Below, piece after piece: positions 16,301 through 33,513 of a stretch of 64,000 nt of DNA (position 1 is its first letter; each line of letters starts with the position of its first letter). Below the pieces are notes generated by a model that saw only the letters and a list, made by a program, of their open reading frames with translations, had not been told where the DNA came from and ran no database searches. Both the position numbers and the translations under genes were made by a program. The stretch comes from an uncultured delta proteobacterium (lineage in GTDB: Bacteria > Myxococcota_A > Polyangia > Polyangiales > Houyiibacteriaceae): positions 672,001 to 736,000 of the forward strand of contig CAVOVB010000001.1 in the NCBI GenBank assembly GCA_963699755.1, written 5' to 3'.

Positions 16301-17962
16301 TCACTGCCCTTCGACGATCCTGATCTTCATCAAGTCACTCGATAGGGCGGGCGCGTGGATGGTCAGCTCCGAATCGCTACGCGTCCAACTGCCGTGAACA
16401 TCCTCGCCGATGTAGACCCGGTACGCCCGGTCTGGGTCGAGGTTACGCACGACCAGGTCGGTGGGGCGGGTGGTGACCTGGGCGCCATTGACCGTGACGT
16501 AGAGAATGGGATCGTCCCAGATGGCCTGATTCACGAAGGCATCGGGGTTGGAAACATGTGAGACGAATGGCTGCGCGTAGAAGTCAGGGCCACGTGGGTC
16601 TTCCACGACTGACCGGAAATTGTTTTCCGCCGTCGTCGCCTCTGCCCAGAGGGTGAAGCCGTTGGGAAACACCATGAACAGAGGCCACTCGGATTGATTC
16701 AGAAAGCCGTACTGGTTTCCTACCCAGAATCGCTCGCCCGCGACCGCATCGAATCCTTTCCGGAGCAGCGCGTAGCTGTCCGCATCGCCCATCTCCCGAG
16801 TCAGAACCGCCGCGTAGCCGGTGCCGATCATGTCGATCAGGGACAGATTCTGAAATTGCCCATGTCGGTTGGGTCCAAAGCTCACGATTCCGGTCCCGGG
16901 TTCGACGATCTCGATCGCCTCGCTGATGAAAGTGGGATAGTGCTCCTCGACGACCTCCGGGGCGAAGCCGTGCATGAAGTGGTGTGCCCAGGATGAATAC
17001 GCCCCGGGTAGCACCGTATCGAACTCGGGCACGGCCTCATAGGGCTTGTATCGGTTGTAGTAGTACCTTGTCTCGGGATCGAGCATGTTCGCGCCGTGCC
17101 ACTCGACGAACCGCGCGTTGGCCTCGGACGCATCCAGCTCGATCGACTTGGGCAGGATGGCGAAGGCGAGCTGTGCGACTGTGTTGCAGCAGGTGAAGAC
17201 CCAGGGGGTCTCGCAGCTGACCGAATAGAAGTTATCTCCGTTGCTGTCTCGGTTGCTCAAGCTCTGCTGATAGATGTCGCGTGACAAGTCGCGCAGGTTG
17301 GTCGTCCAGGTCTGGGAGCCGTCCGCGGTCCTGAGCTCGACATCATTATCGATGTACTTCCCGTCGCCGGCGTGCCGCTCATAGAAGCCCATCAACAACT
17401 GAAGATGGCCCGTGTACATGATGTTGTAGGGGTGGATGGGGTTGGCTCCGCCCCAGCTGAAACCGAGCTCATCGCCGCGCATCCAATAATCCCAGACGAC
17501 CGGGTTCAGAAGCTTCTGGATCATCCCATCCATCGTTTCGAGGTAGCGTTCTCGATAAGCAGGCGTCTGTTCGGCGAGCATCGAAACGCCATACCCCGTG
17601 AAAGCAATCGTGTATCGGTGCATGTTCACCGCACCGCCTGGCGCCCCCTCTCCTGCGGCCAAGCCAAACGGTACCTCTGGTCCCCAGTCGGCGGCGTTGA
17701 GGTCGTCCGGCGGAGTGATGGAGATCGAACGGATGTAATTGAACATCCCGAGCTTCTCGTTGCTCACGAAGGGAAGCTCGTCGAAGTCCGCAATCGAACC
17801 GGACTCGCTGAAGTCGTCCAGTCGGTCGATTCCCCCGGCGCCGCCAACACCGCCGGCACCGCCAATGACATCGGCCGGGCTGGCGCTTCCGCTTCCACAA
17901 GCGGTCACGAAGGCCAAGCCTAGGAGGCAAGCGATGGTGAACCCTCTGCTCGGAAATCTCAT
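16301..17962 (-). CDS. Linalool dehydratase/isomerase (LinD)-like lipoprotein
   Basis: RYTIAF, TPAYRE, WDYW, NIMYTGHL and SCETPWVFTCCN resemble LinD motifs; lipobox VTAC with start MRFPSR. Confidence 0.75.
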   Translation of the reverse strand: MRFPSRGFTIACLLGLAFVTACGSGSASPADVIGGAGGVGGAGGIDRLDDFSESGSIADFDELPFVSNEKLGMFNYIRSISITPPDDLNAADWGPEVPFGLAAGEGAPGGAVNMHRYTIAFTGYGVSMLAEQTPAYRERYLETMDGMIQKLLNPVVWDYWMRGDELGFSWGGANPIHPYNIMYTGHLQLLMGFYERHAGDGKYIDNDVELRTADGSQTWTTNLRDLSRDIYQQSLSNRDSNGDNFYSVSCETPWVFTCCNTVAQLAFAILPKSIELDASEANARFVEWHGANMLDPETRYYYNRYKPYEAVPEFDTVLPGAYSSWAHHFMHGFAPEVVEEHYPTFISEAIEIVEPGTGIVSFGPNRHGQFQNLSLIDMIGTGYAAVLTREMGDADSYALLRKGFDAVAGERFWVGNQYGFLNQSEWPLFMVFPNGFTLWAEATTAENNFRSVVEDPRGPDFYAQPFVSHVSNPDAFVNQAIWDDPILYVTVNGAQVTTRPTDLVVRNLDPDRAYRVYIGEDVHGSWTRSDSELTIHAPALSSDLMKIRIVEGQ

Positions 17963-18020
17963 GAAACCTCTCCTGAAGAAGTCGCGTCTCGCAAAGAAGC
18001 GGTATGGTAAAGGCGAGCCG

Positions 18021-18629
18021 ATGTCAACGCTCGTGAGGCCTAGTTTCCCCAAGACCCGCCTGATCGCGTGGGAGGTCTTCGCGATCTGCTCGGTGACCAT
18101 CATCTTGTGTGCGTGCTCGAAGAAGAGCGCCGAGCAAGTGCCGATCATCGCGCAGCTCCCTGCGCCTTCGCTCGTCGACCAGGATCGGCAGGTCTTCGAG
18201 CGCGAAGCGATGGAGGGGAAACTCTGGGTGACCTCCTTCGTGTTCACCCATTGTCGCGCGACCTGCCCGCGACTGATGGCGCAGATGAAGAAGCTACAAG
18301 GACGCGTTTCCAACGTTCCAAGCGCCCAGCTTCTTTCGGTGAGCGTCGATCCGCAAAACGATACACCCGAGGTGATCAAGGCTTACATGCGGAGGAACGG
18401 ATTCGATGAATCCAACTGGCGCTTCGTGACCGGCGACGAAGATGCGGTTCAGGATTTCGTAGTCGGCGGCTTCAAGGTCGGCTACGGTCAGACCCGATGG
18501 TCGACCGAGCTGACACACTCGAATTCCTTGGCACTCGTGGATGACCTCGGCCGGATCCGAGGCTACTACCGCTCGGATGACGAGGGCCTCGCCGAGCTCG
18601 AGCGTGACCTGCGGGCGATTGCGCCCTAG
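18021..18629 (+). CDS. SCO family copper-binding protein
   Basis: FTHCRATCP (CxxxC), SVDPQNDTPE and conserved His in THSN. Confidence 0.9.
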   Translation: MSTLVRPSFPKTRLIAWEVFAICSVTIILCACSKKSAEQVPIIAQLPAPSLVDQDRQVFEREAMEGKLWVTSFVFTHCRATCPRLMAQMKKLQGRVSNVPSAQLLSVSVDPQNDTPEVIKAYMRRNGFDESNWRFVTGDEDAVQDFVVGGFKVGYGQTRWSTELTHSNSLALVDDLGRIRGYYRSDDEGLAELERDLRAIAP

Positions 18630-18703: not shown

Positions 18704-19565
18704 ATGAGCGAGGCACGTGAAAATGGGGTCGGGCGACCGCATCGGCTCTTCGGAGTGAAGATGATGAACCTGATCGGTCGTGCGGCCAATGCCCTGGGCA
18801 TGCATCCGATCGCGCTCGACGAAGAAGAGTTGATCGATCGAGCGATCAAGAAAGCGCGGAGCTCGGATTTCGGCGGGGACGAGTTCCGGGAGGGACTTCG
18901 GCGCTTCCTGGCCAGCGCCGCGAGCCAAGCCGAGCTCACCCTACTGGGCCGTCTCATGGTCCAGCGGTACGTGACCGACAACCTCGTCAATCGCTTGAAG
19001 CTGGTCGACTGGCGCAAGAAGCATAGGGCAGTCGGGTGGCGTTCGGGGTGGGCGTTGGGTGCTGAAGTCTCCGGCGCACCTGCACTTGATCGACACGCTC
19101 CTGGATGTGTTTCCCGACGCGCGGATCGTGCATACGCATCGGGACCCGATCAAGGTCTGCGCATCAGTCGCGAGCTTGACTGCCACACTTCGAGGCGCTT
19201 CGACCGACAGGATCGATCTGCACGAGGTCGGCCGCCAGCAGGTCGACTGGTGGGCCAAGCTGATCGACCAATCCCTACGGCAACGAAAGCGCCTCGCGCA
19301 CAAGAGCGAGCAATTCTTCGACGTAACGATGAGCGAAACGGTGTCGGACCCGCTAGACGTGGTGCGCCGAATATACGCGCACTTCGGCTACCCACTCAGC
19401 CACGAAGTACAAGCCCAGATGCTCGCGTTCATGAAGGACAACAGCCGCAACAAGCACGGCTCACACACCTACGCTGCCGAGGACTTTGGAATCGACCCCG
19501 TGCGCGACCGGGCACCGTTCCAAGACTACATTGACTATTTTGGCCTTGCCGAGCCTAGCCGCTGA
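18704..19565 (+). pseudogene. Sulfotransferase (Sulfotransfer_3-like) with internal deletion and frameshift near 19025
   Basis: N-part ...LVNRLKLVDWRKKH joins out of frame to QSGGVRGGRWVLKSPAH...THRDP...S; the central PAPS-binding PRxGTT motif is absent. Confidence 0.8.
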
Positions 19566-19572
19566 CCGATCT

Positions 19573-20592
19573 TCAGACCGCCCCGATGGATTCGAGATGC
19601 TGACATGTGCGCTCGATGCCTTCCTCCACCGAGACGGCGGGGTCGTAGCCGAGCTCGCGGCGTGCCTTCTCGATGCTGAAGTAGTGGTGGGTGCACATGT
19701 AGCGGATCGCAAAACGCGTGAGGCCGTCTTCTGCGTTGAGGGTGCCGCCCTTGAGGGTGTCGATGCCCTCTTTGACCGCCGCAATTGCGTAGACGAGCGA
19801 CCTGGGAGCCGTGTACTTCACGGGGGGGAAGCCGAGGCGCGCGGCGACTTTGCGGATGAAGTCCCAGAATGGCATCGGTTCGCCATTGGTGATGAAGTAG
19901 GCCTGGCCGGCGGCAACGCTGTTCAAACCTTCCTTGGCGAGCGCTTGGTCGGCGAGGAGGACCGCGTCCGTCATGTTGGTCACGTAGGTGTAATCGGAAA
20001 GCCAAACACCACGCCCGATTTGAACCTGTAGCTGCCCGTTGCGACCTTTTGCAAGCAGCGTGGGCATGAAGCGGTTGTCCCCCGGACCGAAGACGACGTG
20101 CGGACGAAGGGCACAGGTCGCCATACCGCCCCTGCCGTTCTCGGCGAGCACCAGCTTCTCCGCCTCGATCTTGCTGTCCGCGTATGGGGCCTGGGAAACC
20201 GACGAGTACGGAAGACTCTCGTCGCCGTTTTCGATGTCCTTGCCCTCGTAGACCACGCTCCCGGAGCTGATGTAGATGAAACGTGGGACGCCATTGAGCC
20301 GCGCTCCTTCGAGCATGTTCTTGGTGCCGCCCAGGTTCACCGACCAAACGATGTCCTTCTTATTCTGCTTGGTGTGGACGATCGAAGCATTGTGAATGAC
20401 GCTGTCGACGCCACGGCAGGCCTCGATGACGGCAGCCTTGTCGGTGATGTCGACGCGCCTGTGCTCCACGCCCTCGACCGAGCATTCCGGCGCCAAATCG
20501 AGGACGATGACCTGATCACCCCGATCCCTGAGTGCGCGCGCAATCGCCGCGCCCAGGAAGCCACAGCCGCCCGTTACCAAACTGACAGTCAT
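19573..20592 (-). CDS. 3-beta-hydroxysteroid dehydrogenase/decarboxylase, NSDHL/Erg26-like extended SDR
   Basis: TGGCGFLG, SSGSVVYEGKDIENGDESLPY, YADSK, ALRPHVVFGPGD, GQAYFITNGEP, KARRELGY. Confidence 0.85.
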   Translation of the reverse strand: MTVSLVTGGCGFLGAAIARALRDRGDQVIVLDLAPECSVEGVEHRRVDITDKAAVIEACRGVDSVIHNASIVHTKQNKKDIVWSVNLGGTKNMLEGARLNGVPRFIYISSGSVVYEGKDIENGDESLPYSSVSQAPYADSKIEAEKLVLAENGRGGMATCALRPHVVFGPGDNRFMPTLLAKGRNGQLQVQIGRGVWLSDYTYVTNMTDAVLLADQALAKEGLNSVAAGQAYFITNGEPMPFWDFIRKVAARLGFPPVKYTAPRSLVYAIAAVKEGIDTLKGGTLNAEDGLTRFAIRYMCTHHYFSIEKARRELGYDPAVSVEEGIERTCQHLESIGAV

Positions 20593-20595
20593 GAC

Positions 20596-21282
20596 TTACT
20601 CCACCGTGCCGAAGATGATGTCGGGCAAGGGCGTGATCGAAGCGTAGTTGCCCGAAAGCATGCTGTGATGATGGCGGTCGTGGACCGCTGCGAGCTTGCC
20701 AAGGGTCTTGAACGGGAATCGAGGGCAGTCGATACCCGCATGATTGAGGATGTTGAGCGCGGTGTAAATGGTGAACAAGACAGCGAACGTGATGACGTGC
20801 ACGCCTCCGACGAACGCAAGCGAGCTGAAGAACAAGCTGAGGCCGAGAAAGGTTTCGACGGGATGCAACAAGAGGCTGTCGATCTGCCTCGGATTTCTCG
20901 CCGCGTGGTGAACAGAATGAACACCACGTAGGATCTTCCATTCATGGAATGGGTAGCGGTGCATGAAGTAGTACCCGAAGTCGTAGATCAGAATCACGGT
21001 CACTCCCTCGAGCAAGAATCGCCAAAGCGGCATGGCACGGTCGTGGTAGAGGTGCTCTCCCAATCCGAACATCACCGAAAAGATGAGGGTGATCGAAACG
21101 ACCATGTTGAGTCGAACCCTCCAACGGAGCTCGCTCTCGCTCTTCGAGCGATGGGGGTCGTCGCTGATCAGGTACTTCTGCGCTTCAGGGCTGCGGTAGG
21201 CCTTGTTGAGAACGACCTGTGCGATCCCCGCCGAGGCGTAACTGGCGAGGATGGCTATCAATGCTTTCATTTCCACCGTCAT
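20596..21282 (-). CDS. Sterol desaturase / fatty-acid hydroxylase superfamily di-iron enzyme (Erg25/Erg3-like)
   Basis: His boxes HRYPFH, HSVHH, HPVE, NHAG, HDRHHH; TM helices. Start reset to MTVEMK. Confidence 0.88.
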   Translation of the reverse strand: MTVEMKALIAILASYASAGIAQVVLNKAYRSPEAQKYLISDDPHRSKSESELRWRVRLNMVVSITLIFSVMFGLGEHLYHDRAMPLWRFLLEGVTVILIYDFGYYFMHRYPFHEWKILRGVHSVHHAARNPRQIDSLLLHPVETFLGLSLFFSSLAFVGGVHVITFAVLFTIYTALNILNHAGIDCPRFPFKTLGKLAAVHDRHHHSMLSGNYASITPLPDIIFGTVE

Positions 21283-21290
21283 CTCATCAC

Positions 21291-22454
21291 CTAGGGCACC
21301 AATCTGAGAACGAGCGTACCAGCAATCATGAAGGCGAAAACGGCAACGGCCGCCAGCCTCGACCAGGTCTTGCTGTAGGAGGATTTGACGCCTGAGGCGG
21401 CCCGGAAAGACGTCGATTCGCTGTCGAGCTCCAGAGGTTCGGCGCTCGCGGGAAAGCTTTGGCAGAGGAGCGCGACGCCCCGTGCGACGTCCCTTTCGGA
21501 GAGCGCGTCGTGCGTGCGCATGTAGACCTTGCCGGTGTTCACATGGGCCATGCAGGAGCCGCAGTACCCCGACTCGCAGGAATGGGGCGGATTCAGGCCC
21601 GCCGCTTGCGCACACTGCAAGAGGGTCTTGCCTTTCTCGTATGGAACGGTTCGAGATCGGCCGTTCATCCATAGGCTGAAGCCAGCGGGGGCCGCGAGAG
21701 ACTCGACGTGGATCGCATCCGCTTCGACCCGAGCGGGATCGGCGGGAGAGACGAAGCGCTCGATGTAGACGAGCTCCTCGTGCACCCCTGCCTCTTCGAG
21801 CGTCTCCCGGATGAGCTCCATGAAAGGCTCGGGGCCACAGATGTAACACTCGGCGACGTCGCTGTGATGGAGGAGCCCTCGCACGTCCGCTGGCTCCACA
21901 CAACCGCTCTCCGAATCGAAATGGTATCGAATGTGTAGGCGCTCGGTATGCTCTGCTGCGAGCTGCGCGAGCTCAGCGCCGTAGATGACCGAGTGCAGGT
22001 CTCGGTTGGCGTAGAGCAAAGTGATGCAGCGCTTGGTCGTCGCGAGGGCGCTCTTCAGAAGTGAAATGATCGGAGTGATTCCGCTTCCGCCGGCGAATAG
22101 GAAGAGCGGGGAGCTCGATCGAGTTTCTGGATCCAGAACGAAGCGGCCCTCGGGGATGCTTGCACGGATCGAGTCACCGACCTTCAGATTGTCGTTGAGC
22201 CAGTTGGAGATTCGACCTCCTTCTACCCTTTTTACGGCAATTTTGAGAGGTTCATCGAGGTCGGGGCAGCTCGACAAGGAATAGCAGCGCGTGACTTTGA
22301 AGTCGTCCCAAGGGAGCTCGACGGTGAGGTGCTGGCCTGATCGATACCGGTAGGCATCTCGCAGGCTCATCGGCACTCGGAGCTCGAACGAGCTGGAGTC
22401 GGCCGTCTCGCGAATGACGGCGCTGACTTCGAGCTCGTGAAACTCGACGCTCAT
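21291..22454 (-). CDS. FAD/NAD(P)H-[2Fe-2S] oxygenase reductase (KshB/PaaE-like) with C-terminal TM anchor
   Basis: RCYSLSS, GGSGITP, YICGP, CESGYCGSC...LLCQ; hydrophobic tail LAAVAVFAFMIAGTLVL. Confidence 0.88.
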   Translation of the reverse strand: MSVEFHELEVSAVIRETADSSSFELRVPMSLRDAYRYRSGQHLTVELPWDDFKVTRCYSLSSCPDLDEPLKIAVKRVEGGRISNWLNDNLKVGDSIRASIPEGRFVLDPETRSSSPLFLFAGGSGITPIISLLKSALATTKRCITLLYANRDLHSVIYGAELAQLAAEHTERLHIRYHFDSESGCVEPADVRGLLHHSDVAECYICGPEPFMELIRETLEEAGVHEELVYIERFVSPADPARVEADAIHVESLAAPAGFSLWMNGRSRTVPYEKGKTLLQCAQAAGLNPPHSCESGYCGSCMAHVNTGKVYMRTHDALSERDVARGVALLCQSFPASAEPLELDSESTSFRAASGVKSSYSKTWSRLAAVAVFAFMIAGTLVLRLVP

Positions 22455-23134
22455 GGCTCTTCTTCCAAACCAGCCCTCTCGAGAGCTGCGGCCAGATGCT
22501 CTGGTTTGCAGTAGCTCCTGAGCAGATGCCTGAGCGCCGCATCGGCTAGGCGACTAGAGTCTTCCTTGCATCCTCGATCCATCCACATCGCCAACCGTGC
22601 TTGCTGCGCCGCGATCATCATCCTTGCCATGAGCTCCGGATCGTCATCGACGAGATACCCGTCTTCGATGCAGCTCCGGAAGAGGCTCGCGACGAGATCC
22701 AAACCGACCCCGAGTGCCTCGACCTGTTCGGGGCTGCGTAGCAGCTCGATCGTCGACCAGGCGGTGACTTCCTTGAGTTGCATCTTGGTGAAGTCGAGGT
22801 GCTCCATGAAGAAGGACAGCTGCGTTCGAGTTCCGGCGATGAGGATGTCGAGCGAAGACATCTCTTTTTGAAGAACGTCTTGTGTGCGGAGCATGACCTC
22901 GCCCAAGCGCCGGCGGTGCACGGCGCGGTAGATCTCCCACTTGGAAGGGAGCACGCTGTAGAGCGTGGTCAGCGAGACCCCTGCCTCGGCGGCGATCCGC
23001 TGCACTTTGGTGGCCTCGTAGCCCTCCTGGCCAAACACCCGTTCCGCGGCGTCGAGGACGGCCTCGCGATAGAGCTCGCGCTTCCTATCCTTCAGGGATT
23101 CTTGGGCTTTTGCGGCTGCGGCGCTCGTTGACAC
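22451..23134 (-). CDS. TetR/AcrR family transcriptional regulator
   Basis: N-terminal HTH VLDAAERVFGQEGYEATKVQRIAAEAGVSLTTLY. Confidence 0.92.
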   Translation of the reverse strand: MSTSAAAAKAQESLKDRKRELYREAVLDAAERVFGQEGYEATKVQRIAAEAGVSLTTLYSVLPSKWEIYRAVHRRRLGEVMLRTQDVLQKEMSSLDILIAGTRTQLSFFMEHLDFTKMQLKEVTAWSTIELLRSPEQVEALGVGLDLVASLFRSCIEDGYLVDDDPELMARMMIAAQQARLAMWMDRGCKEDSSRLADAALRHLLRSYCKPEHLAAALERAGLEEEP

Positions 23135-23182
23135 GGTTGGGTCGGAATGATAAGGGCGAAAATCAGAATGTCAATTCCGATT
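23128..23182. promoter_or_regulatory. Overlapping divergent sigma70-like promoters with TetR operator palindrome
   Basis: Minus strand: TTGACA(23174-23169)-16 bp-TATCAT(23152-23147). Plus strand: TTGACA(23128)-17 bp-TAAGGG with upstream TG. Palindrome AATCAGAAT-gtca-ATTCCGATT at 23161-23182. Confidence 0.7.
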
Positions 23183-24760
23183 TCGGCGGAGACCGAATCT
23201 GCACCTTCCGCGCCGGCTAGCCAGATCCCATGTGTCGACCCGGCGACGCGAGAGCGACTTGGAGCGATTCCCGTCGACTCTCCTGAGGACGTCGCTGCCG
23301 CCGTGGCGCGTGCCAAGGTCGCGCAGAAAGCTTGGCGTAGGACTTCGTTCGAACAGCGACGCGAGCTTCTGCGGCGGCTGCTCGCATTCACGGTCGATCA
23401 GAAGGACGAGATCTGTCTCGCGGTGCAGCGCGACTCCGGTAAGACCCGAGAAAACGCGCTGATGGGGGAGATCTGGCCAACCTGCGAGAAGTTTCGCTGG
23501 ATGATCAAGAATGGCGAGAAGTATCTTCGCCCCGAACGCGTCTCGTCTGGCTTGCTGCTCCATAAGACGGCGCGCCTCGAGTATCACCCGCTCGGTGTCA
23601 TCGCCGCAATCATTCCCTGGAACTATCCGTTCCAGAACATCGTCAACCCGGTGATCCCGGCTCTGATGTCGGGAAATGCAATCGTCCTCAAGCCATCGGA
23701 GTGGGTGGCCTGGTCGAGCGACAAGTTCGTCCAGGCGCTTCAAAAGGTCGTCGAAGAAGCGGGACACAATCCGGATCTGATTCAGGCGGTGCAAGGGTAC
23801 GGACCCACCGGCGCAGCACTCGCTCGCTCTGCGGTCGATTCGATCCTGTTCATCGGCTCGGTTCGCAACGGGCGTCGCGTCATCGAAGCCAGCGCGGAGC
23901 GGGTTGTCCCGGTCGTCATGGAGCTCGGCGGCAAGGACGCTTTCATCGTCTGCGATGATGCGGATCTCGAACAGGCAGTCCATGCCTCGCTCGCTGGTTG
24001 CTACATCAATTGCGGACAGAACTGCGTCGCTTCGGAGCGAATTTTGGTCTACGAGGACATCTACGACGCCTTCGAAAAGCGAGCCGCAGAGCTGGTTCGA
24101 GAGTTTCGACAGGGCAGCAGCCGTGAGGGCGTTGTCGATGTCGGCGCGATCGTCACGCCCCTACAGCTCGACGTGATCGAGATGGCGGTCGATGGGGCGA
24201 TCGCCGAGGGTGCTCGGGTCATCACCGGGGGCAAACGCGTGCTGAGCGACAAGGGTGATTACTTCGAGCCGACCATCTTGGCAGACGTGACGCCAGAGAT
24301 GGACATCGCACAGGAAGAGGTCTTTGGCCCGGTGATGCTCTTGATGCGCGTACGAGATGATGCGCATGCGGTCGAGGTCGCAAATGGGGTGGCGTACGGC
24401 CTCTCGTCGTCGGTTTTTTCCAAGAACCGCTCGCGGGCTCGCAAGATCGCCTCGGAGCTCGAAGCCGGCATGAGCGCGATCAACGAGTTCGGCGGAATCA
24501 CGTACATGGCGCAAGGACTCACCTTCGGTGGCGTGAAGGCTTCGGGATACGGTCGAATGAACGGTCGTGAAGGCTTGCGTTCGATGTGCAACATCAAGGC
24601 GGTCGTCGATGATCGCTTGCCGATCAACAAAGCCAACCGGGTTTTCCCGGTCGCTGAGAAGGACTATGGCGTTTTCAGTGCTGTGATCGAGCTGATCTAT
24701 GGCAAGAGCCTCGCGCAGCGATGGCGTGGCTTGCTGAAGCTGTTGGGCCGAAAGCGCTGA
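23168..24760 (+). CDS. Aldehyde dehydrogenase (resembles ALDH family 15/22)
   Basis: PWNYP, KPSE, FIGS, MELGGKD, catalytic GQNC, EEVFGP, FGGVKASG. Confidence 0.93.
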   Translation: MSIPISAETESAPSAPASQIPCVDPATRERLGAIPVDSPEDVAAAVARAKVAQKAWRRTSFEQRRELLRRLLAFTVDQKDEICLAVQRDSGKTRENALMGEIWPTCEKFRWMIKNGEKYLRPERVSSGLLLHKTARLEYHPLGVIAAIIPWNYPFQNIVNPVIPALMSGNAIVLKPSEWVAWSSDKFVQALQKVVEEAGHNPDLIQAVQGYGPTGAALARSAVDSILFIGSVRNGRRVIEASAERVVPVVMELGGKDAFIVCDDADLEQAVHASLAGCYINCGQNCVASERILVYEDIYDAFEKRAAELVREFRQGSSREGVVDVGAIVTPLQLDVIEMAVDGAIAEGARVITGGKRVLSDKGDYFEPTILADVTPEMDIAQEEVFGPVMLLMRVRDDAHAVEVANGVAYGLSSSVFSKNRSRARKIASELEAGMSAINEFGGITYMAQGLTFGGVKASGYGRMNGREGLRSMCNIKAVVDDRLPINKANRVFPVAEKDYGVFSAVIELIYGKSLAQRWRGLLKLLGRKR

Positions 24761-26340
24761 TGGACCAGTTCGACTACATCGTGGTTGGGGGCGGATCAGC
24801 AGGCTGCATCGCAGCCGCTGAGCTCGCGGGTGATCCTCGGTATCGCGTGCTCCTACTGGAGGGCGGACCCAGGGCCGAGGAGCACCCCGAAACCCTGGTC
24901 GCGGACGGCTACAAAGAGGCATTCGTCAACGATGCCGTGATGGGAGAGCGGTTTTCGGTTCCGCAGGCCCACGCCGGCAAGCGGCGAATCTTCGCTGGTA
25001 CCGGGACCGTGATGGGCGGCAGTGGTTCTGTGAACGCCATGGTCTACACGCGTGGCTCGCGCGAGGACTACGCAGAGTGGCCTGAGGGCTGGCACTGGGA
25101 CGACAATCTCGCTGATTTCCGCGCGATCGAGGAGACGCTTCGACCACATCGACGCCCTGCGACCGCCTGGACCGAAGCCTGCATCGCTTCGGCGGAACAG
25201 CACGGCTTCACCCGGAAAGAAGACCTCAACGACGGCAACATGAGCAACGTCATCGGCTACGAGTGGATGTCCTACGAGGGCGAGAACCGTCGAAGCTCCT
25301 ACGTGGCGTTCATCAAGGACGCCGGCGCACGTCCGAATCTCACCGTCGTCACGGGCGCCCTCGCCCATCGGGTCGTGTTCACGGGCGAGAAGCTGGCCCG
25401 TGCGGTCGAGTTCGAACATGCGGGTGCGCTCCAGCGGGCGGAGGCGAGCAAAGAGATCGTACTTTGCGCCGGCGCACTGGAGACCCCGAAGCTGCTCATG
25501 CTCTCGGGCGTGGGTCGGAGCGAACACCTGCGGACCTTCGACATCCCCCTGGTTGCCAATAGGCCAGCAGTCGGAGACGGGCTTCACGATCACCCGAACG
25601 TGCCCGTCTTCTTCCAGGCCGAGAAGGGCATCGACTGCTTCTATCCGCAGCTCTACAGCTTTTTCCGTACCAACCACGCGAGCGACCTTCCGGCCTCGCA
25701 GAGCGACACTTGCTATGTGTACTGGCCGGCTCCTTCGGCGATGCAGCAGATGATGGAGCGCATGCTGCCGCCGATGGCGGTCCCGCATGGGCTCTACGGC
25801 CCGCGATCGCGACAAATGGTGCGCGGCATGGTGGGCACCGCGTTCAAGCTCGGCGCTGTACGACGTTTCACCGACCGGATGTTCGGGATCATCTTGATCC
25901 TCGGGAAGCCAAAGAGCCGCGGCACGCTGCGTTTGCAGTCGACCGACGTGCGCCGCCAGGCGCTCATCGATCCGGCCTATTACTCGGACCCGGAGGACAT
26001 GGAGACGATGGTCAGAGGCGTTCGGATTGCCAAAGCGATAGGTGCTTCGGGCGGGCTCGCGGAATGGGGGGCCAAGGAGCTCATGCCTGGCAAGCGGGTC
26101 CAGAGCGATGAGGCCATCGCCAACTACGTCCGAAAGAACACGATTACGACCTATCACGTCGCCGGAAGCTGCAGCATGGGTGTCACCGAAGCGCACGCGG
26201 TCGACCCTCAGCTCCGCCTGCGAGGCGTCACGGGTCTGCGAATTGCGGATGCTTCAGTGATCCCTTGGACGCCGGTTTCCGCGCTCAACGCCCCGAGCAT
26301 GCTGATCGGCTATCGCGCCGCGAAGCTCATCCGGAGCTGA
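24760..26340 (+). CDS. GMC family FAD oxidoreductase (alcohol dehydrogenase/oxidase)
   Basis: DYIVVGGGSAG, GGSGSVNAMVYTRG, LMLSGVG, YH...SCSMG, LRIADAS; TGATG coupling with the ALDH. Confidence 0.92.
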   Translation: MDQFDYIVVGGGSAGCIAAAELAGDPRYRVLLLEGGPRAEEHPETLVADGYKEAFVNDAVMGERFSVPQAHAGKRRIFAGTGTVMGGSGSVNAMVYTRGSREDYAEWPEGWHWDDNLADFRAIEETLRPHRRPATAWTEACIASAEQHGFTRKEDLNDGNMSNVIGYEWMSYEGENRRSSYVAFIKDAGARPNLTVVTGALAHRVVFTGEKLARAVEFEHAGALQRAEASKEIVLCAGALETPKLLMLSGVGRSEHLRTFDIPLVANRPAVGDGLHDHPNVPVFFQAEKGIDCFYPQLYSFFRTNHASDLPASQSDTCYVYWPAPSAMQQMMERMLPPMAVPHGLYGPRSRQMVRGMVGTAFKLGAVRRFTDRMFGIILILGKPKSRGTLRLQSTDVRRQALIDPAYYSDPEDMETMVRGVRIAKAIGASGGLAEWGAKELMPGKRVQSDEAIANYVRKNTITTYHVAGSCSMGVTEAHAVDPQLRLRGVTGLRIADASVIPWTPVSALNAPSMLIGYRAAKLIRS

Positions 26341-26433: not shown

Positions 26434-27453
26434 ATGACCAAAGCCAAGCACCTCTTCATCGCCGTCCTAGCCCTGGGCGCCTTCATGCTGCCAGGGACTG
26501 TTTCCCTACCCCAGGCGAACGCTGCCTCCTCGACGATCATTCGCTTTGCATCTCTCGCACCCCCCGGCTCGGCGTTCATGAAGTTGATGAAGGCTTGGAA
26601 CCGGAGCCTGAAGACCGAAACCGAAAACCGAGTCGAGCTTCGCTTCTACTCGGGCGGGAGCCAAGGCGACGAGCGCGACTTCATCCGCAAGGTGCGCGCG
26701 GGGCAGATGGACGCGGCCGGAGTCACGACCACGGGCCTTGGAATGGTCGCGCGTCCGGTTCTGGTTCTGACCGCACCCGGAATGATCACCGAATACGCGC
26801 AGCTCGAACGCGCGCGCGAGCAGCTGGGCGAGCGATTCTCCAAGTTGTTCAGGGAAAATGGGTTTGTCATGCTGGCTTGGGGAGAGGCCGGTAAGAACCG
26901 CATTTTTTCCATGGAAAAGTTTGCGAAACCCGATGACTTGAAGCGGCTCCGACCCTGGGCATGGAAAGACGACCCGGTTTTCGCCGGCTATGTCAGCACC
27001 ATCGGCGCGAATCCGGTGCGCATGGGCGTGCCCGAAGTCTACGGAGGTTTGCAGACGCGAATGCTCGACACCGTGCCCGCCTCGGCGCTCGCTGCTGTCG
27101 CGCTCCAGTGGTACACGCGCCTCAACTACATGGCGAAGGAGAACTTCGGCATCATCATCGGCGGCTCGGTCATCAAGCAGGAGAAGTTTGATCTGCTGAG
27201 TGAGCATGATCAGAAAGTGCTGATGGACACCAGCGAGCGCGCCGCACGAGCCGGCGACGTGATGGCACGCCGGGACGACGAGCGGGCCTATGCTTCACTG
27301 ATCAAGCGCGGCATGGTCGAAGTGGACACCGCTGCCTACCAGGCCGAATGGGACGCCGTCGCCAAGAAGACGCGCGAAAGCCTGACCGGTCGGGTCTACA
27401 GCAAGAGCCTCCTCGAAGCCGTCGAGAAGGTCGTAGCGGGCGAGCCTAACTAG
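26434..27453 (+). CDS. dctP: TRAP transporter substrate-binding protein DctP (TatP-like)
   Basis: IRFASLAPPGS, GDERD, GQMD, VPEVYGGLQT; signal peptide. Confidence 0.85.
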   Translation: MTKAKHLFIAVLALGAFMLPGTVSLPQANAASSTIIRFASLAPPGSAFMKLMKAWNRSLKTETENRVELRFYSGGSQGDERDFIRKVRAGQMDAAGVTTTGLGMVARPVLVLTAPGMITEYAQLERAREQLGERFSKLFRENGFVMLAWGEAGKNRIFSMEKFAKPDDLKRLRPWAWKDDPVFAGYVSTIGANPVRMGVPEVYGGLQTRMLDTVPASALAAVALQWYTRLNYMAKENFGIIIGGSVIKQEKFDLLSEHDQKVLMDTSERAARAGDVMARRDDERAYASLIKRGMVEVDTAAYQAEWDAVAKKTRESLTGRVYSKSLLEAVEKVVAGEPN

Positions 27454-28286
27454 CCCAATTCGTCACGGAGAAACCGAAGCGAGAGCTCATTGAAGAGCTT
27501 CGGGTATTCGACCATGACCCAATGGCCGCAGCGGGAAATCAGCATCGTGCGTGAGTTCGCACAGCGGCTCGCGATTTTGGCCGCACCGCTCGAAGGACAG
27601 AACTTGTCATTGGCGCCCCAGAAGCAGAGCACCGGACACTGAATCTCGGAGAGCCTGTCTTCCTGGTTCGCAACGTGGATGCGGGCAATGTTGTCCCGGT
27701 GTTGCGTCATCGCGATCTGAAATCGCTCTTCGATCACCTCGTCGGTGATCTTCGATTCGTCATGAAGCTGCAGCGTGAAAACCTTGCGCATGGTTTCCTT
27801 GCTGATGCCCTCTTTGAAGAGGACGCGAATCATCGCTTTGATCCCCTCCATCTCCATGTAAGTCTCTCGCGCTTCGAGGCCGCCCGGCGCCATCAAGACG
27901 AGCTTCTCGACCAGCTCCGGATAGTTGAGCGCCATCGTGATGGCGATCGCTCCGCCCTGTGAGTTGCCGATGACGGCGGCGCGCTCGACAGCGAGGGAGT
28001 CGAGGAGGCCCTTGTACTGGGCGGCGACGTCGTCGAGGCTGAACACCCCGTCTTCAGGCTTGGTCGAATAGCCGTAGCCCATCGTGTCGGGCACGATTGT
28101 TCGGTAGCCCTGCTCGGCGAGGAAGGGGTAGTTCCCCTTGAAGTTACTCCAACCGCTGGCGCCTGGACCGCTGCCGTGGACGAACAAGACGACGCCACGT
28201 TCCCCGCTGCCGGCCTCGTGGTAGTGCATCGTGATGCCCTTACCGGTGTCGGCGTATCTTCCCTCGGGAACTGCTTCTACGACCAT
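27450..28286 (-). CDS. hsaD: Meta-cleavage product (C-C) hydrolase, HsaD/BphD/MhpC-like
   Basis: HGSGPGASGWSNF, GNSQGG, WGANDKF, CGHW. Confidence 0.8.
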   Translation of the reverse strand: MVVEAVPEGRYADTGKGITMHYHEAGSGERGVVLFVHGSGPGASGWSNFKGNYPFLAEQGYRTIVPDTMGYGYSTKPEDGVFSLDDVAAQYKGLLDSLAVERAAVIGNSQGGAIAITMALNYPELVEKLVLMAPGGLEARETYMEMEGIKAMIRVLFKEGISKETMRKVFTLQLHDESKITDEVIEERFQIAMTQHRDNIARIHVANQEDRLSEIQCPVLCFWGANDKFCPSSGAAKIASRCANSRTMLISRCGHWVMVEYPKLFNELSLRFLRDELG

Positions 28287-28350: not shown

Positions 28351-29271
28351 TCAGTCCTTTTTGCCCTTCGCTTCTTTGGCGCGCCGGTAGGCCTTGGTGA
28401 GGAGCTGCGGAGGATGATGCCCCCACTCGCTGACCTTGTCGTGGGTCATGCTCTTCCAACCCTCTCCGATTTCGATGGCCCCAGCGCCGAACTCGAAGTG
28501 AAAACCGGAGGGCGTGTACCCGTAGAACGAAAACATCTTGTCGTTGGGGTGCCGCCCCAGGGTTTGGTGAACCATCCCGCCGGAGAAGAGGAAGCGATCG
28601 TAACACCTGCCGACTTCATCCAGCGTCTTGGACTGCACCATGAAGTGGTGAATGCGCTTGAGCTGCCCGCCACCGAATGCAAGCGAGTGATGCCGCGCGT
28701 TGGCGTGCATGAAGGTGACGTTGATCTCGTGCCCAAAGTACTCACAACGAATGTAGTCGCTGAGCTCGAGCCCGAAGATGCTCGCATAGAACTGTTCCTG
28801 CTTCGCGTCGTCTTTGGAGACGACGACGACGTGTCCAAAACCCTGTTCGTCCGCGACGAAACCCGAAGCGACGACTTCGGAGAGGAACGGCTCGTCGGCC
28901 ATCCTGGGACCGTAGAAGATCTCGATCGGGTTCCCAGCCGGATCACTTGCTCGAACGAGCGCCTGAACGTTTCGCCTAGCGGCGTCGTCCTGGCTAGCCT
29001 CGACGACCTCGTGTCCGGCACGTTTGAGGCTTTGGACGATCTCTTCGAGCGCCGCGGGGCCTTCGACCTCCCAGCCGACCGCCGCCAGGTCGTCCGCCGG
29101 CCCCTTCTCGATGAAGAAGCGCTGCTGATAGCCATCCATGCGTAGAGAAAAACCGCTATCACCGCGCCGATCGACCAGCTGGAGACCAAGAATCTTGGTT
29201 CCGAAATTCTCCCACGCCGCGAGGTCGCTGACCTCGAAGACCAAGTATCCCGCTTGCTTTACCGCAGCCAT
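28351..29271 (-). CDS. hsaC: Extradiol ring-cleavage dioxygenase, HsaC/BphC-like (VOC fold)
   Basis: GFGHVV, HHSLAF, HHFMVQ, LGRHPNDKMFSFY..TPSGF.FEFG, SEWGH. Start reset to MAAVKQ. Confidence 0.82.
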   Translation of the reverse strand: MAAVKQAGYLVFEVSDLAAWENFGTKILGLQLVDRRGDSGFSLRMDGYQQRFFIEKGPADDLAAVGWEVEGPAALEEIVQSLKRAGHEVVEASQDDAARRNVQALVRASDPAGNPIEIFYGPRMADEPFLSEVVASGFVADEQGFGHVVVVSKDDAKQEQFYASIFGLELSDYIRCEYFGHEINVTFMHANARHHSLAFGGGQLKRIHHFMVQSKTLDEVGRCYDRFLFSGGMVHQTLGRHPNDKMFSFYGYTPSGFHFEFGAGAIEIGEGWKSMTHDKVSEWGHHPPQLLTKAYRRAKEAKGKKD

Positions 29272-29324
29272 TTGCCTTGCCTCCGGCCGCATCATAGTAC
29301 GGAGGCCGCATCTGGCTACGGAGA

Positions 29325-30032
29325 ATGTTGATGAAATCCACCGCAACGGCGAGAGGGCCCACGGTCCCGACTGCAGCAGTCATCGCAACCGTCGTCGTCG
29401 TCGGCACGCTGTTCCACACCTGGCTGCACCAGCGCGAGCACGGCATCTACAACATTACGCAGATCGGCTTGGCGTTCTTCCTGGTGATCAACATGATGAT
29501 CGCGTGGTGGGAGATCGCGTTGTTCGTCTGCCAAGATCAGATTCACGCCGAGTACGAGGCCACCAAGGAACCTTACCGCGGACGCGAGCTGCAACGAATC
29601 GGAGAGATCTTCGCGCGCCGCATCCCGCTGTTGCGCGTTTTCTCCTTCAGCGAGTGGACGACGATTTGGTCGGGCTATTCGCTCTTCGACCCGGGGTACT
29701 CCGACCGACGCTCGTTCGGCTACAACATCGACGTAGGCAACGGCTTCACGACCCTGATTCCGGCAACCCTATTCGCATTCGGCATGACCTTCGAGCTGAT
29801 GCCAGCGCGCTGGCTCGGCATCATCGGCGTGGTCATGTTCTGGCAGATGTTCTACGGAACCTCGGTTTACTTTTTCCAGTTCTTCAACAACGGCCGCCAC
29901 GAAGGCCACTCGCTCAGGGACCTCCTGCTCTTCGTCGGCATCACCAACCTGATGTGGCTCGTATTTCCGATCTGGGGGCTCTGGACGAGCATCCAGCTGA
30001 TTCTGAGCGGCTCCTACGGCCTCTTTCTCTAG
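29325..30032 (+). CDS. EBP/EXPERA-like membrane protein, putative sterol delta8-delta7 isomerase
   Basis: WSGYSLFDPGY, QMFYGTSVYF and FVGITNLMWLVFP parallel EBP motifs WxEYxxxDxRY, GQxYGxxLYF and NxxWxxxP. Confidence 0.6.
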   Translation: MLMKSTATARGPTVPTAAVIATVVVVGTLFHTWLHQREHGIYNITQIGLAFFLVINMMIAWWEIALFVCQDQIHAEYEATKEPYRGRELQRIGEIFARRIPLLRVFSFSEWTTIWSGYSLFDPGYSDRRSFGYNIDVGNGFTTLIPATLFAFGMTFELMPARWLGIIGVVMFWQMFYGTSVYFFQFFNNGRHEGHSLRDLLLFVGITNLMWLVFPIWGLWTSIQLILSGSYGLFL

Positions 30033-31408
30033 ATCGCGCGCCGGTCTCTCGATTTCAGCATCATTTTCTGCATCTGCTTGAAGTCGGCAACGGCATCCTG
30101 CTCGTCGGTCGAAAACGGATAGTCGGCGCCGATCGAATGGGCAACGACCAGCCCGGACATGAAGGACAAGTCGTGTCCGCCCTCTGGAGTCGTGAACGTA
30201 CCGCAGTAGTAGAGCCCGTCCTTCCCCTGAAGGTGTCGCATCATCGACATGATGATGAGGTTCCCCAGCGAGACGCTGTGGGTGGGATGGGGCAGCTCGA
30301 TCCGTTTCTGAGCTCGCTCGATCGGCCGCTTCGCGTTGAAGGTGACCAGCATCGGCACACCCTGGTCCTTGGTGCTCGGGTTCTGGGCCGAGATGACGAA
30401 AGTGCACTCGAGCTCGCCCGCTTCATCGATTTGCGAATAGGTGTTGTACCCGGAGAGGATCTTGTCGCGATGTTCCCCGGGGAAGATGCTCGTGTCGGAG
30501 TGAACGATGAAGCTGGAGAACGTCGGATCGACGTCGTCTACGTACTCAGCCCTGCTGAAGAGGAGCCTCTGAAGCCAGCTGGGAGATTCGAGCGCGTCGA
30601 GCACCGAGGTCGCATCACAGGCGAAGACCACCTCATCGGCTTCGTAGCTCCGCCCTCTTGCATCAGCGAGGATGTACCGACCGTTTCTCCGTTTCACGCT
30701 CGTGATTTCGTGGTCGCAGTGCACCCGATCCGAAAATCGCGCCGTCATGCGGTCGAAAACCTGCCGGGGCGCGCCTTGCCAGGTTCCCATCTGCGTAGGC
30801 TCTTCGAGAGGTACGATGCTTTCGAGCAAGGGCAGGATCACCGCGGGAACCCCGCGCATCGAAGTCGTGATGAAGCTCGCGCAGTGGATCGGAACGAAGA
30901 TCGTGTCCCAGAAGTCGCGCGAGATCCCAAAGAGCCGGGCCATCCAGTAGAGCGGGATGAAGTTGAGCGGGTTGAAATACGAGAAGTGGTAGAGAGAGTC
31001 GTGTTTGTTTCTTGGCAGGAAGAAATCGTTCACCTTGCTGACGAAGGCGACGAGCCGCTTCCACCGGCGAAACTCGGGCGCGAATCGCTGCTGGAGCGCG
31101 GTTTGCCCGTCCTGGCAGAAGTGCCCCTCGGGGGTCTGCACGAAGTATGAGATGGGCAAGGTTTCGATTCCGACGCCTAGCTGCTGCAGGAGCAGCTCGT
31201 AGTTGTGGTAGTACATCTGCGGCCAGGCGACGACGAGGAGGGGCGAGTCCGCATGGCCTCGATCGGTGCGCCAGCGAAAGGTCTTCGCGTTGCCGCCGAG
31301 CGCAGGGCCCTTCTCGAAGATGTCTACCTCGTAGCCCGAGCGGCTGAGCGACCAGGCCGCGCCAACCCCGGCGATACCCCCTCCAACGACCGCTATCTGC
31401 TTGGTCAT
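30029..31408 (-). CDS. FAD/NAD(P)-binding oxidoreductase (amine-oxidase/COG2907-like)
   Basis: IAVVGGGIAG...FEK...LGGNA dinucleotide fold; C-terminal YYCG...GGHD..SG. Confidence 0.8.
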   Translation of the reverse strand: MTKQIAVVGGGIAGVGAAWSLSRSGYEVDIFEKGPALGGNAKTFRWRTDRGHADSPLLVVAWPQMYYHNYELLLQQLGVGIETLPISYFVQTPEGHFCQDGQTALQQRFAPEFRRWKRLVAFVSKVNDFFLPRNKHDSLYHFSYFNPLNFIPLYWMARLFGISRDFWDTIFVPIHCASFITTSMRGVPAVILPLLESIVPLEEPTQMGTWQGAPRQVFDRMTARFSDRVHCDHEITSVKRRNGRYILADARGRSYEADEVVFACDATSVLDALESPSWLQRLLFSRAEYVDDVDPTFSSFIVHSDTSIFPGEHRDKILSGYNTYSQIDEAGELECTFVISAQNPSTKDQGVPMLVTFNAKRPIERAQKRIELPHPTHSVSLGNLIIMSMMRHLQGKDGLYYCGTFTTPEGGHDLSFMSGLVVAHSIGADYPFSTDEQDAVADFKQMQKMMLKSRDRRAI

Positions 31409-31431
31409 ACGGCTCTCCCCAATCTCCTTCG

Positions 31432-32703: not shown

Positions 32704-33513
32704 CTAGATCGGTCCAAAGAACGCCGCGGCGAAGTCCAATAGGAAGATCATGATCAGGCTCGCGGTGCACGCTGCGGCCGCCGTCATCGGCAGGCTCCAA
32801 TTCTTGTTACGCTCCTCGTCGATCCAGCAAAAGATCGGGAAGCTCGCTACGAAGTAGAGCGAATAGAAAAGGGAGCCGTACGTGAGCATTCGCTCCAGGT
32901 CCTTGTAGTAGAACTGGCTCTCCATCCAGGGGTTCGCCATGGCCTTGGTTTCCATCCAGGCCCAAAAATAGGCGATGCCGAGGACCAGGATCGGCCACGC
33001 CAGGGCGCCGCTCGGAATCCGGGAGGTGCGGATGCGCCTGAGGACGATGACCGCGGTCGTGTGATAGGTGAGAAAGTACGCCTGGGTGAGCAGATACATG
33101 ATCAACGGCACCCGTTGTTCTCCGGAGCCCACGAGCGCCGAATCGAGATTGAGCTCGATCATCGGGTAGTCGTAGACCATCCCGAGCACGTCGAAGAAGT
33201 ACTCGGTGCCGAAGTAGTTGGCCGCGAAGTTGAAGATCGCAATGTAGAGGTTCGCTTTGAACCAGTAGGTCTGGTACCAGCGTCGCCCGATGGGCTTCTC
33301 GTCGCGAATGAGGGCTGGGATCGCCGCCAGGGGCAGCGCGACGGCGACACCAATCGCCATGAAGCCCCACTCGCCCACACGATCGGTGACGCCGAGGCCC
33401 ATCACGAGCCCCATCATCGTCATCCAGACCGGCGAGTAGGCGAGGAAGAACCTCTCGCCCCAGGCCTTGCTGGGGTTTGCCGAGAACCAGCGCGGGACGA
33501 CAGCGCGCGTCAT
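32704..33513 (-). CDS. cpi1: Cycloeucalenol cycloisomerase (cyclopropyl sterol isomerase) homologue
   Basis: WFSANPSKAWGERFFLAYSPVW, YWFKANLYIAIF, NYFGTEYFF.VLG..Y and YH...LRR match plant CPI1 motifs. Confidence 0.85.
   Translation of the reverse strand: MTRAVVPRWFSANPSKAWGERFFLAYSPVWMTMMGLVMGLGVTDRVGEWGFMAIGVAVALPLAAIPALIRDEKPIGRRWYQTYWFKANLYIAIFNFAANYFGTEYFFDVLGMVYDYPMIELNLDSALVGSGEQRVPLIMYLLTQAYFLTYHTTAVIVLRRIRTSRIPSGALAWPILVLGIAYFWAWMETKAMANPWMESQFYYKDLERMLTYGSLFYSLYFVASFPIFCWIDEERNKNWSLPMTAAAACTASLIMIFLLDFAAAFFGPI

Follow-up and report, generated by a model that had tools for sequence, protein, structure and literature searches.

A divergent gene cluster with a candidate role in sterol C-4 demethylation is located on contig CAVOVB010000001.1 of an uncultured delta proteobacterium from the family Houyiibacteriaceae (Myxococcota_A), within a stretch of 64,000 nucleotides (nt) that we refer to as the window. 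A preliminary description of this DNA listed six genes, i.e. a left operon comprising a TetR-family regulator, a membrane-anchored reductase, a di-iron hydroxylase and a short-chain dehydrogenase/reductase (SDR) resembling NSDHL and Erg26, and a right operon comprising an aldehyde dehydrogenase (ALDH) and a GMC flavin oxidoreductase (GMC), and proposed that both operons share one operator and serve sterol C-4 demethylation by a third architecture. Based on the list of open reading frames (ORFs) and on Pfam and NCBIfam profiles, all six genes are present where they had been placed (Table 1), and the right operon continues with a seventh gene for a DctP-type TRAP solute-binding protein.

Gene content, operator and conservation of the divergon

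The left operon is transcribed in the order TetR, reductase, FA_hydroxylase and SDR; the first two genes overlap by 4 nt, and the following gaps measure 11 nt and 3 nt. On the opposite strand the ALDH is followed by the GMC and the DctP-type protein, which has no membrane partners alongside and stands after the GMC in 7 of the 14 congeners from which the surrounding gene island was fetched. Together, the seven genes make up two compact transcription units that diverge from one conserved 36-bp element, and this divergon is a real, conserved and co-regulated unit.

The TetR and ALDH genes are just 12 bp apart if the longest ORFs are taken. Across 36 aligned TetR/ALDH junctions the 36-bp element is conserved at 90% or more, nominal third codon positions included, while the flanking coding sequence drifts. 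It contains a 7-bp inverted repeat (TCGGAAT/ATTCCGA) around two GAATG words, and its pattern matches the genome (5.35 Mb) at a single site and the reversed control nowhere. In four congeners with 3-4 kb inserted between TetR and ALDH, one copy of the element precedes each of the two genes; elsewhere there is one copy in 12 other loci and none in five distant loci. The comparison thus supports the proposed shared operator and is good evidence that both transcription units would answer to one site, and we infer that the neighbouring TetR binds it. The best NCBIfam matches of this regulator are weak and are all lipid-sensing TetRs (FadR, FasR, PsrA and KstR), and its gene neighbours the hydroxylase in nearly all relatives. 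As the long ALDH ORF begins with seven codons inside the conserved block, these appear to be regulatory DNA. The real ALDH start is probably the ATG at 23168, because 23147-23167 falls inside the conserved non-coding element, and this start agrees with the annotated protein of a congener. The GMC probably begins at the ATG at 24760, which overlaps the stop codon of the ALDH.

The gene set was traced through 151 genomes sampled from the order, where a hydroxylase orthologue (E<=1e-40) was found in 20, i.e. the present genome, all 18 others of its genus and one from a sister genus. Of 40 other genomes in the genus, 38 have an ALDH orthologue, and those that lack it are 80% and 87% complete; both ALDH and GMC are present in all 14 congeners with fetched islands. 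In these islands the pair either adjoins TetR back-to-back or is separated from it by 3-4 kb of inserted DNA with genes for a sulfotransferase, a DUF1214 protein, a classical SDR and, in some cases, an HpnA/SdmB-like SDR. Both genes are also found at each of the 25 metagenome loci, out of 80, that extend far enough. An apparent lack of co-conservation, in which ALDH and GMC looked absent from about half of 56 loci (27 and 24 of 56), was an artefact of 6-kb flanks, since longer stretches showed the displacement by insertion. The neighbourhood conservation on which the preliminary description made its proposal depend, including that of ALDH and GMC with the left operon, is therefore borne out.

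In close relatives the hydroxylase and SDR genes, 3 nt apart, are never separated, and the reductase adjoins the hydroxylase in every case. In the sister genus (locus L115, genome G077) the six genes are reshuffled, with ALDH-GMC-reductase::hydroxylase divergent from TetR-SDR, and the reductase and FA_hydroxylase are fused in frame in one ORF of 641 amino acids (aa; L115:4695-6620, minus strand). Other orders are hydroxylase-reductase-TetR | ALDH-GMC in another family (L103), TetR | ALDH-reductase-hydroxylase (L104) and ALDH-SDR-reductase-hydroxylase (L064). The arrangement is far beyond chance, because it recurs in 14 of 14 congener islands, its ALDH in 38 of 40 congeners, and the set, reshuffled, in another genus. 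The GMC is the least constant member. More distant hydroxylase relatives (43-51% identical; L105-L109, L112) keep the TetR and none of the other genes, and were treated as other subfamilies.

Two further observations concern individual loci. In G128 (C14:97039-98647) and G132 (C12:49439-50999) the ALDH match comes in two abutting pieces, which may reflect a frameshift or, in G128, masked bases. Beside the TetR in L052, an FAD_binding_4 protein followed up as an ether-lipid lead gave only weak and generic FAD-oxidase matches and was dropped.

Enzyme families and the surrounding island

None of the five enzymes has lost its catalytic motifs, and alignments of 8 to 11 sequences each show them conserved at identities down to 38-60%. 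For the SDR, a PDB search returned human NSDHL as the closest solved structure (6jkg, 1e-36), and the motifs TGGxGFxG, an Asp at the end of beta2 and YxxxK are kept in 8/8 sequences. Among NCBIfam models OleD scores highest (250 bits, cut-off 580) and SdmB (NF052578) reaches 81 bits (cut-off 600), both far below their cut-offs; the best SdmB score elsewhere in the genome is 209 bits. One member of the SDR cluster is labelled sterol-4alpha-carboxylate 3-dehydrogenase by JGI. The protein thus has the fold and motifs of the ERG26/NSDHL family, with decarboxylating activity as a prediction. The hydroxylase has the PF04116 fold and the His boxes of ERG25/SMO-type oxidases (HRxxxH, HxVHH, NH and HDRHHH, kept in 11/11 sequences), and oxidation of the C-4 methyl is predicted for it; it has no PDB relative at E<=1, and Atlas and homologue searches returned only the label 'sterol desaturase family'. 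The adjoining FNR/2Fe-2S reductase is PaaE-like (230 bits), ends in a hydrophobic C-terminal tail and keeps its motifs (RxYS, GGSGITP, Cys4) in 10/10 sequences. It is the predicted electron donor of the hydroxylase, a role that the natural fusion of the two in L115 leaves hardly in doubt.

The ALDH keeps the motifs PWNYP, ELGGK (Glu), GQNC (Cys) and EEVFGP in 11/11 sequences, and in the same sequences the nucleophilic Cys, the general-base Glu and the oxyanion-hole Asn are all intact. These residues are the machinery of aldehyde oxidation and not of ketone reduction. The intact active site, in a protein published as 'ERG27-analog', therefore suggests aldehyde oxidation rather than ketone reduction, although another activity is possible, and it fits the step from CHO to COOH that had been assigned to this enzyme. 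For the GMC, which keeps GGGSAG and its His and Asn motifs in 9/9 sequences, choline oxidase, alcohol oxidases and fatty-acid photodecarboxylase head the PDB matches, among which no cholesterol oxidase is found at 1e-30 or better.

A sterol substrate is indicated by what surrounds the divergon. At the opposite end of the same conserved island, 7-9 kb away, lie genes for CYP51 and a CPI1-like protein, with five genes between the latter and the right-hand unit (HsaD/BphD-like, HsaC/BphC-like, a 235-aa protein, an amine-oxidase-type flavoprotein and a LipL-like esterase). The island order is kept across the genus, with CPI1-like and HsaC-like genes in 12 and CYP51 in 10 of the 14 fetched islands. 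In 11 genomes of the genus, the present one included, CYP51 and the hydroxylase share a contig at a distance of 12-19 kb, and 26 of 27 congeners have a CYP51, with or without a cyclase. On a metagenome contig (L183:2-3267, plus strand) the end of the reductase, the hydroxylase, the SDR and CYP51 (461 aa, 65% identical to that of the window) follow head to tail with gaps of 3 and 21 nt. Because of the CYP51 and CPI1-like genes in the conserved island, and because of the L183 operon with CYP51, it is likely on gene context that the divergon acts on a sterol, in line with the substrate first proposed. An initial reading in terms of non-sterol or ether lipids, which was based on the missing cyclase and gave sterols about one chance in ten, was dropped once the syntenic CYP51 and CPI1 had been confirmed.

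De novo synthesis of sterols is not the role of the divergon in this genome, because no squalene or oxidosqualene cyclase was found in it (estimated completeness 100%), the only trace being one 28-bit domain match in a 382-aa ORF. Among 18 congeners with the hydroxylase, 8 have a cyclase and 10 do not; outside the genus, G475 and G436 also combine the module and CYP51 with the lack of a cyclase. The cyclase-free genomes, together with the HsaC/HsaD-like neighbours, suggest that the sterols are exogenous. The HsaD and HsaC model scores are 187 bits against a cut-off of 400 and 222 bits against 450 (NF045632, NF045631), a likeness at the family level only, and the island's HsaC-like gene is the only one in the genome. 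The genome further holds two HsaA-like genes (414 and 410 bits, cut-off 450) and nine KshA_C Rieske genes. Clusters of these HsaA-like and of KshA_C-type Rieske genes elsewhere in this genome (G000 C7:169280-172134 and C2:244881-251062) suggest a capacity for degrading the steroid nucleus.

There is no SdmA in the divergon, and the best score in the genome is 80 bits against a cut-off of 600 (NF052579). Full-strength SdmA (397-420 bits) occurs in 18 of 61 genomes of the family and in none of this genus, and in other genera of the family it adjoins CYP51 and the cyclase. The Rieske gene that follows the SDR in three loci was rejected as SdmA (36 bits), and a clean either/or between SdmA and the present module across the family was likewise rejected, as several CYP51-bearing genera have neither at the thresholds used.

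A role in handling exogenous sterols also finds support in two congeners (G084, G140) with two CYP51 genes each; the island copy is 91-92% identical to that of the window, and the second is 80-82% identical and lies about 4 kb from the oxidosqualene cyclase. Some observations on the island and its borders stand apart from this argument. A second, distant TetR-like gene (38-40% identical) is found at the CYP51 end of the island in two congeners (L119, around 18120, and L133, 1295-1825) and is absent there in the window. The flavoprotein and esterase ORFs overlap by 274 nt as called, the flavoprotein start probably being later. Convergent on the SDR is the remnant of a Sulfotransfer_3 gene (18704-19559, plus strand), in which, of the 422 residues of a close relative's orthologue, 1-110 and 244-421 persist in two different frames and about 133 are gone; intact sulfotransferases recur within or beside the island in other genomes. 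Beyond it, a 692-aa protein (16301-18379, minus strand) carries an Ldi (linalool dehydratase/isomerase) domain (1e-36), matches no NCBIfam model and recurs alongside the island in some relatives with 72-80% identity.

Table 1 Features of the divergon and the adjoining island, in window positions.
Feature	Position	Strand	Support or remark
Extended SDR, 3beta-HSD/NSDHL (ERG26-like) family, 339 aa	19573-20592	-	PF01073 3Beta_HSD 1e-62; last gene of left operon
Membrane di-iron FA_hydroxylase (ERG25/SMO-like), 227 aa	20596-21279	-	PF04116 1.5e-24
FNR-type flavin reductase with plant-type 2Fe-2S domain and C-terminal membrane anchor, 387 aa	21291-22454	-	PF00970 FAD_binding_6, PF00175 NAD_binding_1, PF00111 Fer2
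TetR-family regulator	22451-23134	-	PF00440; first gene of left operon
Predicted operator, conserved 36-bp element at divergent junction	23144-23179	.	Alignment of junctions
Aldehyde dehydrogenase (published 'ERG27-analog')	23147-24760	+	PF00171 Aldedh 1.5e-130
GMC flavin oxidoreductase	24721-26340	+	PF00732 and PF05199
DctP-type TRAP solute-binding protein	26434-27453	+	NF037995, 240 bits
HsaD/BphD-like meta-cleavage hydrolase	27450-28286	-	HsaD model 187 bits
HsaC/BphC-like extradiol dioxygenase	28351-29346	-	BphC 298 bits, HsaC 222 bits
235-aa protein, conserved island member	29325-30032		
Amine-oxidase/phytoene-desaturase-type flavoprotein, conserved island member	30029-31705	-	
LipL-like esterase, conserved island member	31432-32676	-	
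CPI1-like protein, 269 aa	32704-33513	-	Homologues named cycloeucalenol cycloisomerase by JGI
CYP51 sterol 14alpha-demethylase	33510-34889	-	Best PDB match Methylococcus CYP51, 2e-140

A candidate route for sterol C-4 demethylation and its alternatives

The best reading of the divergon is sterol C-4 demethylation, which in one form or another is probable from gene content and context. Specifically, we propose, with a probability of about 45%, that it is a modular form of such a system and acts on external sterols in this cyclase-less myxobacterium from marine sediment. Without ligand, TetR would sit on the 36-bp element and keep both units shut until a sterol or an intermediate releases it. 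The di-iron hydroxylase, drawing NAD(P)H electrons through the anchored FNR/2Fe-2S reductase, would then hydroxylate the C-4 methyl, after which the GMC flavoenzyme would convert the 4-hydroxymethyl to a 4-formyl group and the ALDH the 4-formyl to a 4-carboxy group; such a stepwise oxidation from CH3 to COOH is suggested by the co-regulation of the GMC with a catalytically intact ALDH. The NAD-type ERG26/NSDHL-like SDR would oxidise the 3beta-hydroxyl, so that the resulting beta-keto acid loses CO2 and leaves a 3-keto, C-4-demethylated sterol, and an ERG27-type reduction would be unneeded if this product is destined for ring opening, for which the HsaC/HsaD-like genes next door may serve.

In the wider island, CPI1 would open the 9,19-cyclopropane ring and CYP51 would remove the 14-methyl, so that the whole could trim cycloartenol-/lanosterol-type and 4-methyl sterols into forms that an ordinary steroid pathway handles. 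Two steps of the 9,10-seco pathway would be blocked in such substrates, 9alpha-hydroxylation by a 9,19-cyclopropane and ring cleavage between C-4 and C-5 by C-4 methyls. Because these groups block ring degradation, CPI1, CYP51 and a C-4 demethylase are together what a degrader of protosterols would need. In congeners with a cyclase, the same island could serve the cell's own sterols.

A number of points weigh against this proposal. The eukaryotic SMO carries out all three oxidations alone, so the GMC and ALDH are not chemically required, and the GMC is absent from some distant relatives that retain ALDH, reductase and hydroxylase (L064, L068/L104). The HsaC/HsaD-like scores lie below the equivalog cut-offs and BphC/BphD fit as well, the estimated contamination of the genome is 9%, and 9 of 27 congeners carry an SdmA-like Rieske protein of 221-270 bits. 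Genome G077 has all six genes and neither CYP51 nor cyclase. The assignment of the hydroxylase to the ERG25 and not the ERG3 clade relies on the supplement of one paper (PMC8237579). Further, C-4 demethylation in cultured Myxococcota has been shown to run on SdmAB(C), and no homologues of eukaryotic C-4 enzymes were found in Enhygromyxa, Sandaracinus and Minicystis at the cut-offs of the laboratory concerned (PMC10202945; bioRxiv 2024.11.01.621555).

The core of the gene set had already been predicted in print. Desmond and Gribaldo (2009, PMC2817430) described ERG25 and ERG26 homologues in Plesiocystis and, from the phyletic pattern, put forward a protein of the ALDH family for the place of the missing ERG27, the 3-ketoreductase of plants and many protists; they note that the yeast member of this ALDH group cannot replace ERG27. 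Wei et al. (PMC4919349) found such homologues in other myxobacteria, and this 2016 paper still called the role of the 'ERG27-analog' open. Hoshino and Gaucher (2021, PMC8237579) placed a three-step ERG25-27 pathway in myxobacteria and Dadabacteria beside SdmAB, with the ERG27-analog mostly flanked by ERG25 and ERG26. In the trees of their supplement, exact look-up finds the hydroxylase orthologue of a congener metagenome-assembled genome (78% identical) as KPK15878.1 in the ERG25 ingroup, its SDR orthologue (82%) as KPK15879.1 under 'bacterial ERG26 homolog 1' and its CPI1-like orthologue as KPK15870.1 in the CPI1 tree, while its ALDH orthologue (76%) clusters with KPK15882.1, an entry of the ERG27-analog tree; another paralogue of the same congener, KPK10785.1, stands in the ERG3-type outgroup. 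Since the congener orthologues are exact accessions in these trees, the trio of hydroxylase, SDR and ALDH is the published bacterial ERG25/ERG26/'ERG27-analog' synteny group, and the claim of a third architecture falls; three Sdm variants already belong to the known bacterial picture (PMC10202945). The supplement also gives near-consecutive accessions for ERG26, ERG25, ALDH, CYP51 and CPI1 in Ketobacter alkanivorans and Zavarzinia compransoris, and this accession order suggests that the island exists in Proteobacteria too. In the supplement text available to us, GMC, choline dehydrogenase and ferredoxin have no occurrence, and among 16 word-start matches to 'TetR' the 11 listed are other words.

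Under the published eukaryote-style scheme, the hydroxylase alone would perform the three oxidations, the SDR would decarboxylate and the ALDH would be the 3-ketosteroid reductase, leaving the GMC and DctP-type protein to do something else, e.g. to oxidise the 3beta-hydroxyl or act on another intermediate. SMO enzymes are known for all three steps, and linkage to the hydroxylase extends further for the ALDH than for the GMC (L064, L068). We nevertheless consider the scheme rather unlikely here, as the intact Cys, Glu and Asn of the ALDH serve aldehyde oxidation and the GMC shares an operator-controlled unit with the ALDH in every island reaching that far. It is the reading drawn from the phyletic pattern in PMC2817430 and from the synteny and trees in PMC8237579, and the failure of the yeast ALDH to replace ERG27 argues against it. 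It is less likely still that the module attacks a sterol elsewhere than at C-4, whether by converting a side-chain methyl to a carboxylate or through a C-5 desaturase or C-25 hydroxylase, with the SDR as an ordinary 3beta-hydroxysteroid dehydrogenase/isomerase. The FA_hydroxylase superfamily does include C-5 desaturases and the cholesterol 25-hydroxylase, and the 3Beta_HSD Pfam family also includes catabolic dehydrogenases. In actinobacteria, oxidation of the terminal side-chain methyl to the carboxylate is the job of CYP125 and, with the 3beta-HSD step, makes up the two opening moves of aerobic sterol catabolism, to which the TetR control, the HsaC/HsaD-like neighbours and the HsaA-/KshA-like genes of the genome would be suited. 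Against an attack away from C-4 speak the 3-nt gap between hydroxylase and SDR, which are never apart in close relatives, the island partners CPI1 and CYP51, which trim ring methyls and are not side-chain enzymes, and the position of the orthologue in the ERG25 group with its paralogue KPK10785.1 in the ERG3-type outgroup (trees of PMC8237579).

A role outside sterol metabolism is very unlikely. In that case the divergon would merely lie near sterol genes and oxidise a lipid or hydrocarbon in the manner of AlkB/AlkJ/AlkH, cleave ether lipids like alkylglycerol monooxygenase with a fatty aldehyde dehydrogenase, or represent a BetI-BetB-BetA-type system. TetR with ALDH and GMC does mimic betIBA, GMC with ALDH mimics AlkJ/AlkH, and G077, as mentioned above, has the six genes and lacks both CYP51 and a cyclase. 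The Bet models, however, score far below their cut-offs (BetA 267 bits against 732, BetB or BADH 311 against 669, BetI 20 against 201), the CYP51/CPI1 link is conserved across the genus and operonic in L183, and to our knowledge CYP51 has no non-sterol substrate. According to the trees of PMC8237579, the trio also occurs in hydrocarbon-degrading Proteobacteria, but in the same Proteobacteria the CYP51/CPI1 link recurs by accession order. The modular C-4 module hence stays our preferred reading.

Relation to known systems and implications

The division of labour proposed for the divergon has a close parallel in the AlkB/AlkJ/AlkH route of Pseudomonas putida, where a di-iron hydroxylase with its own electron chain is followed by a GMC alcohol dehydrogenase and an aldehyde dehydrogenase; AlkB, however, belongs to another di-iron family, uses rubredoxin and alkane substrates, and no decarboxylating SDR comes after it. 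The pairing of a membrane di-iron enzyme with a dedicated reductase resembles mycobacterial DesA3 and Rv3230c, an integral-membrane di-iron desaturase and an FNR/2Fe-2S oxidoreductase with the same domain order, although the di-iron family there is that of the acyl desaturases and the substrate differs; we know of no DesA3/Rv3230c fusion. With the eukaryotic C-4 complex (ERG25/SMO, ERG26/NSDHL, ERG27 and ERG28) the present set shares an FA_hydroxylase di-iron oxidase beside a 3beta-HSD-family dehydrogenase nearest NSDHL, as well as the proposed chemistry at C-4 and C-3. It differs in that a dedicated and sometimes fused FNR/2Fe-2S reductase replaces cytochrome b5, a co-regulated GMC and ALDH may perform the second and third oxidations, ERG27 and ERG28 are lacking, and the genes form a TetR-controlled operon in a genome with no cyclase.

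SdmAB(C) has the same predicted net reaction, and in Myxococcota both systems are found in sterol gene clusters with CYP51 alongside, but SdmA is a Rieske oxygenase, of which the present cluster has none. SdmABC is enough for C-4 demethylation in Enhygromyxa and SdmAB in Calothrix (PMC10202945), and SdmAB is enough in Sandaracinus and Minicystis according to a preprint (bioRxiv 2024.11.01.621555). The papers on ERG25, ERG26 and the ERG27-analog, in the portions available to us, deal with a biosynthetic, eukaryote-type pathway in which the ALDH stands in as ketoreductase, and they do not set cyclase-free genomes apart as a case of their own, whereas we read the ALDH as an aldehyde oxidiser in a cyclase-free setting. 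That enzymes usually regarded as biosynthetic do occur in degraders is exemplified by a Cyp51-linked sterol reductase in sterol-degrading Mycobacteriales (PMC13277303). In the open-access literature we found no paper on a C-4 route assisted by GMC, ALDH and reductase, or on bacterial catabolism of cycloartenol-type sterols. New here are a dedicated reductase for the hydroxylase, with the two fused in one relative, the co-regulation of the GMC, the intact ALDH active site of the 'ERG27-analog' and the operator, as is the setting in cyclase-free genomes beside HsaC/HsaD-like genes.

Bacterial ERG25/ERG26 homologues are used in phylogenetic papers to argue that the eukaryotic sterol pathway came from myxobacteria, while all experiments to date have shown bacteria to use SdmAB(C), which is unrelated. 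In this regard, the locus represents a compact and testable unit with its own reductase, GMC and ALDH accessories. If the route proposed here is true and serves catabolism, the 'ERG27-analog' of non-opisthokont eukaryotes would get a different job, namely the conversion of the 4-formyl to the 4-carboxy group, and enzymes usually read as biosynthetic would here work in degradation, with the 3-keto product going straight into ring cleavage. 'Sterol biosynthesis genes' in metagenomes should, with due caution, not be taken as proof of sterol production. More tentatively, Myxococcota of marine sediments that no longer have a sterol cyclase may retain this 'sterol-trimming' island of 16-22 kb as a funnel into catabolism for the protosterols and 4-methyl sterols of other organisms, and the retention of the module together with CYP51 in the absence of a cyclase bears on the reworking of sterane and 4-methylsterane biomarkers in sediments.

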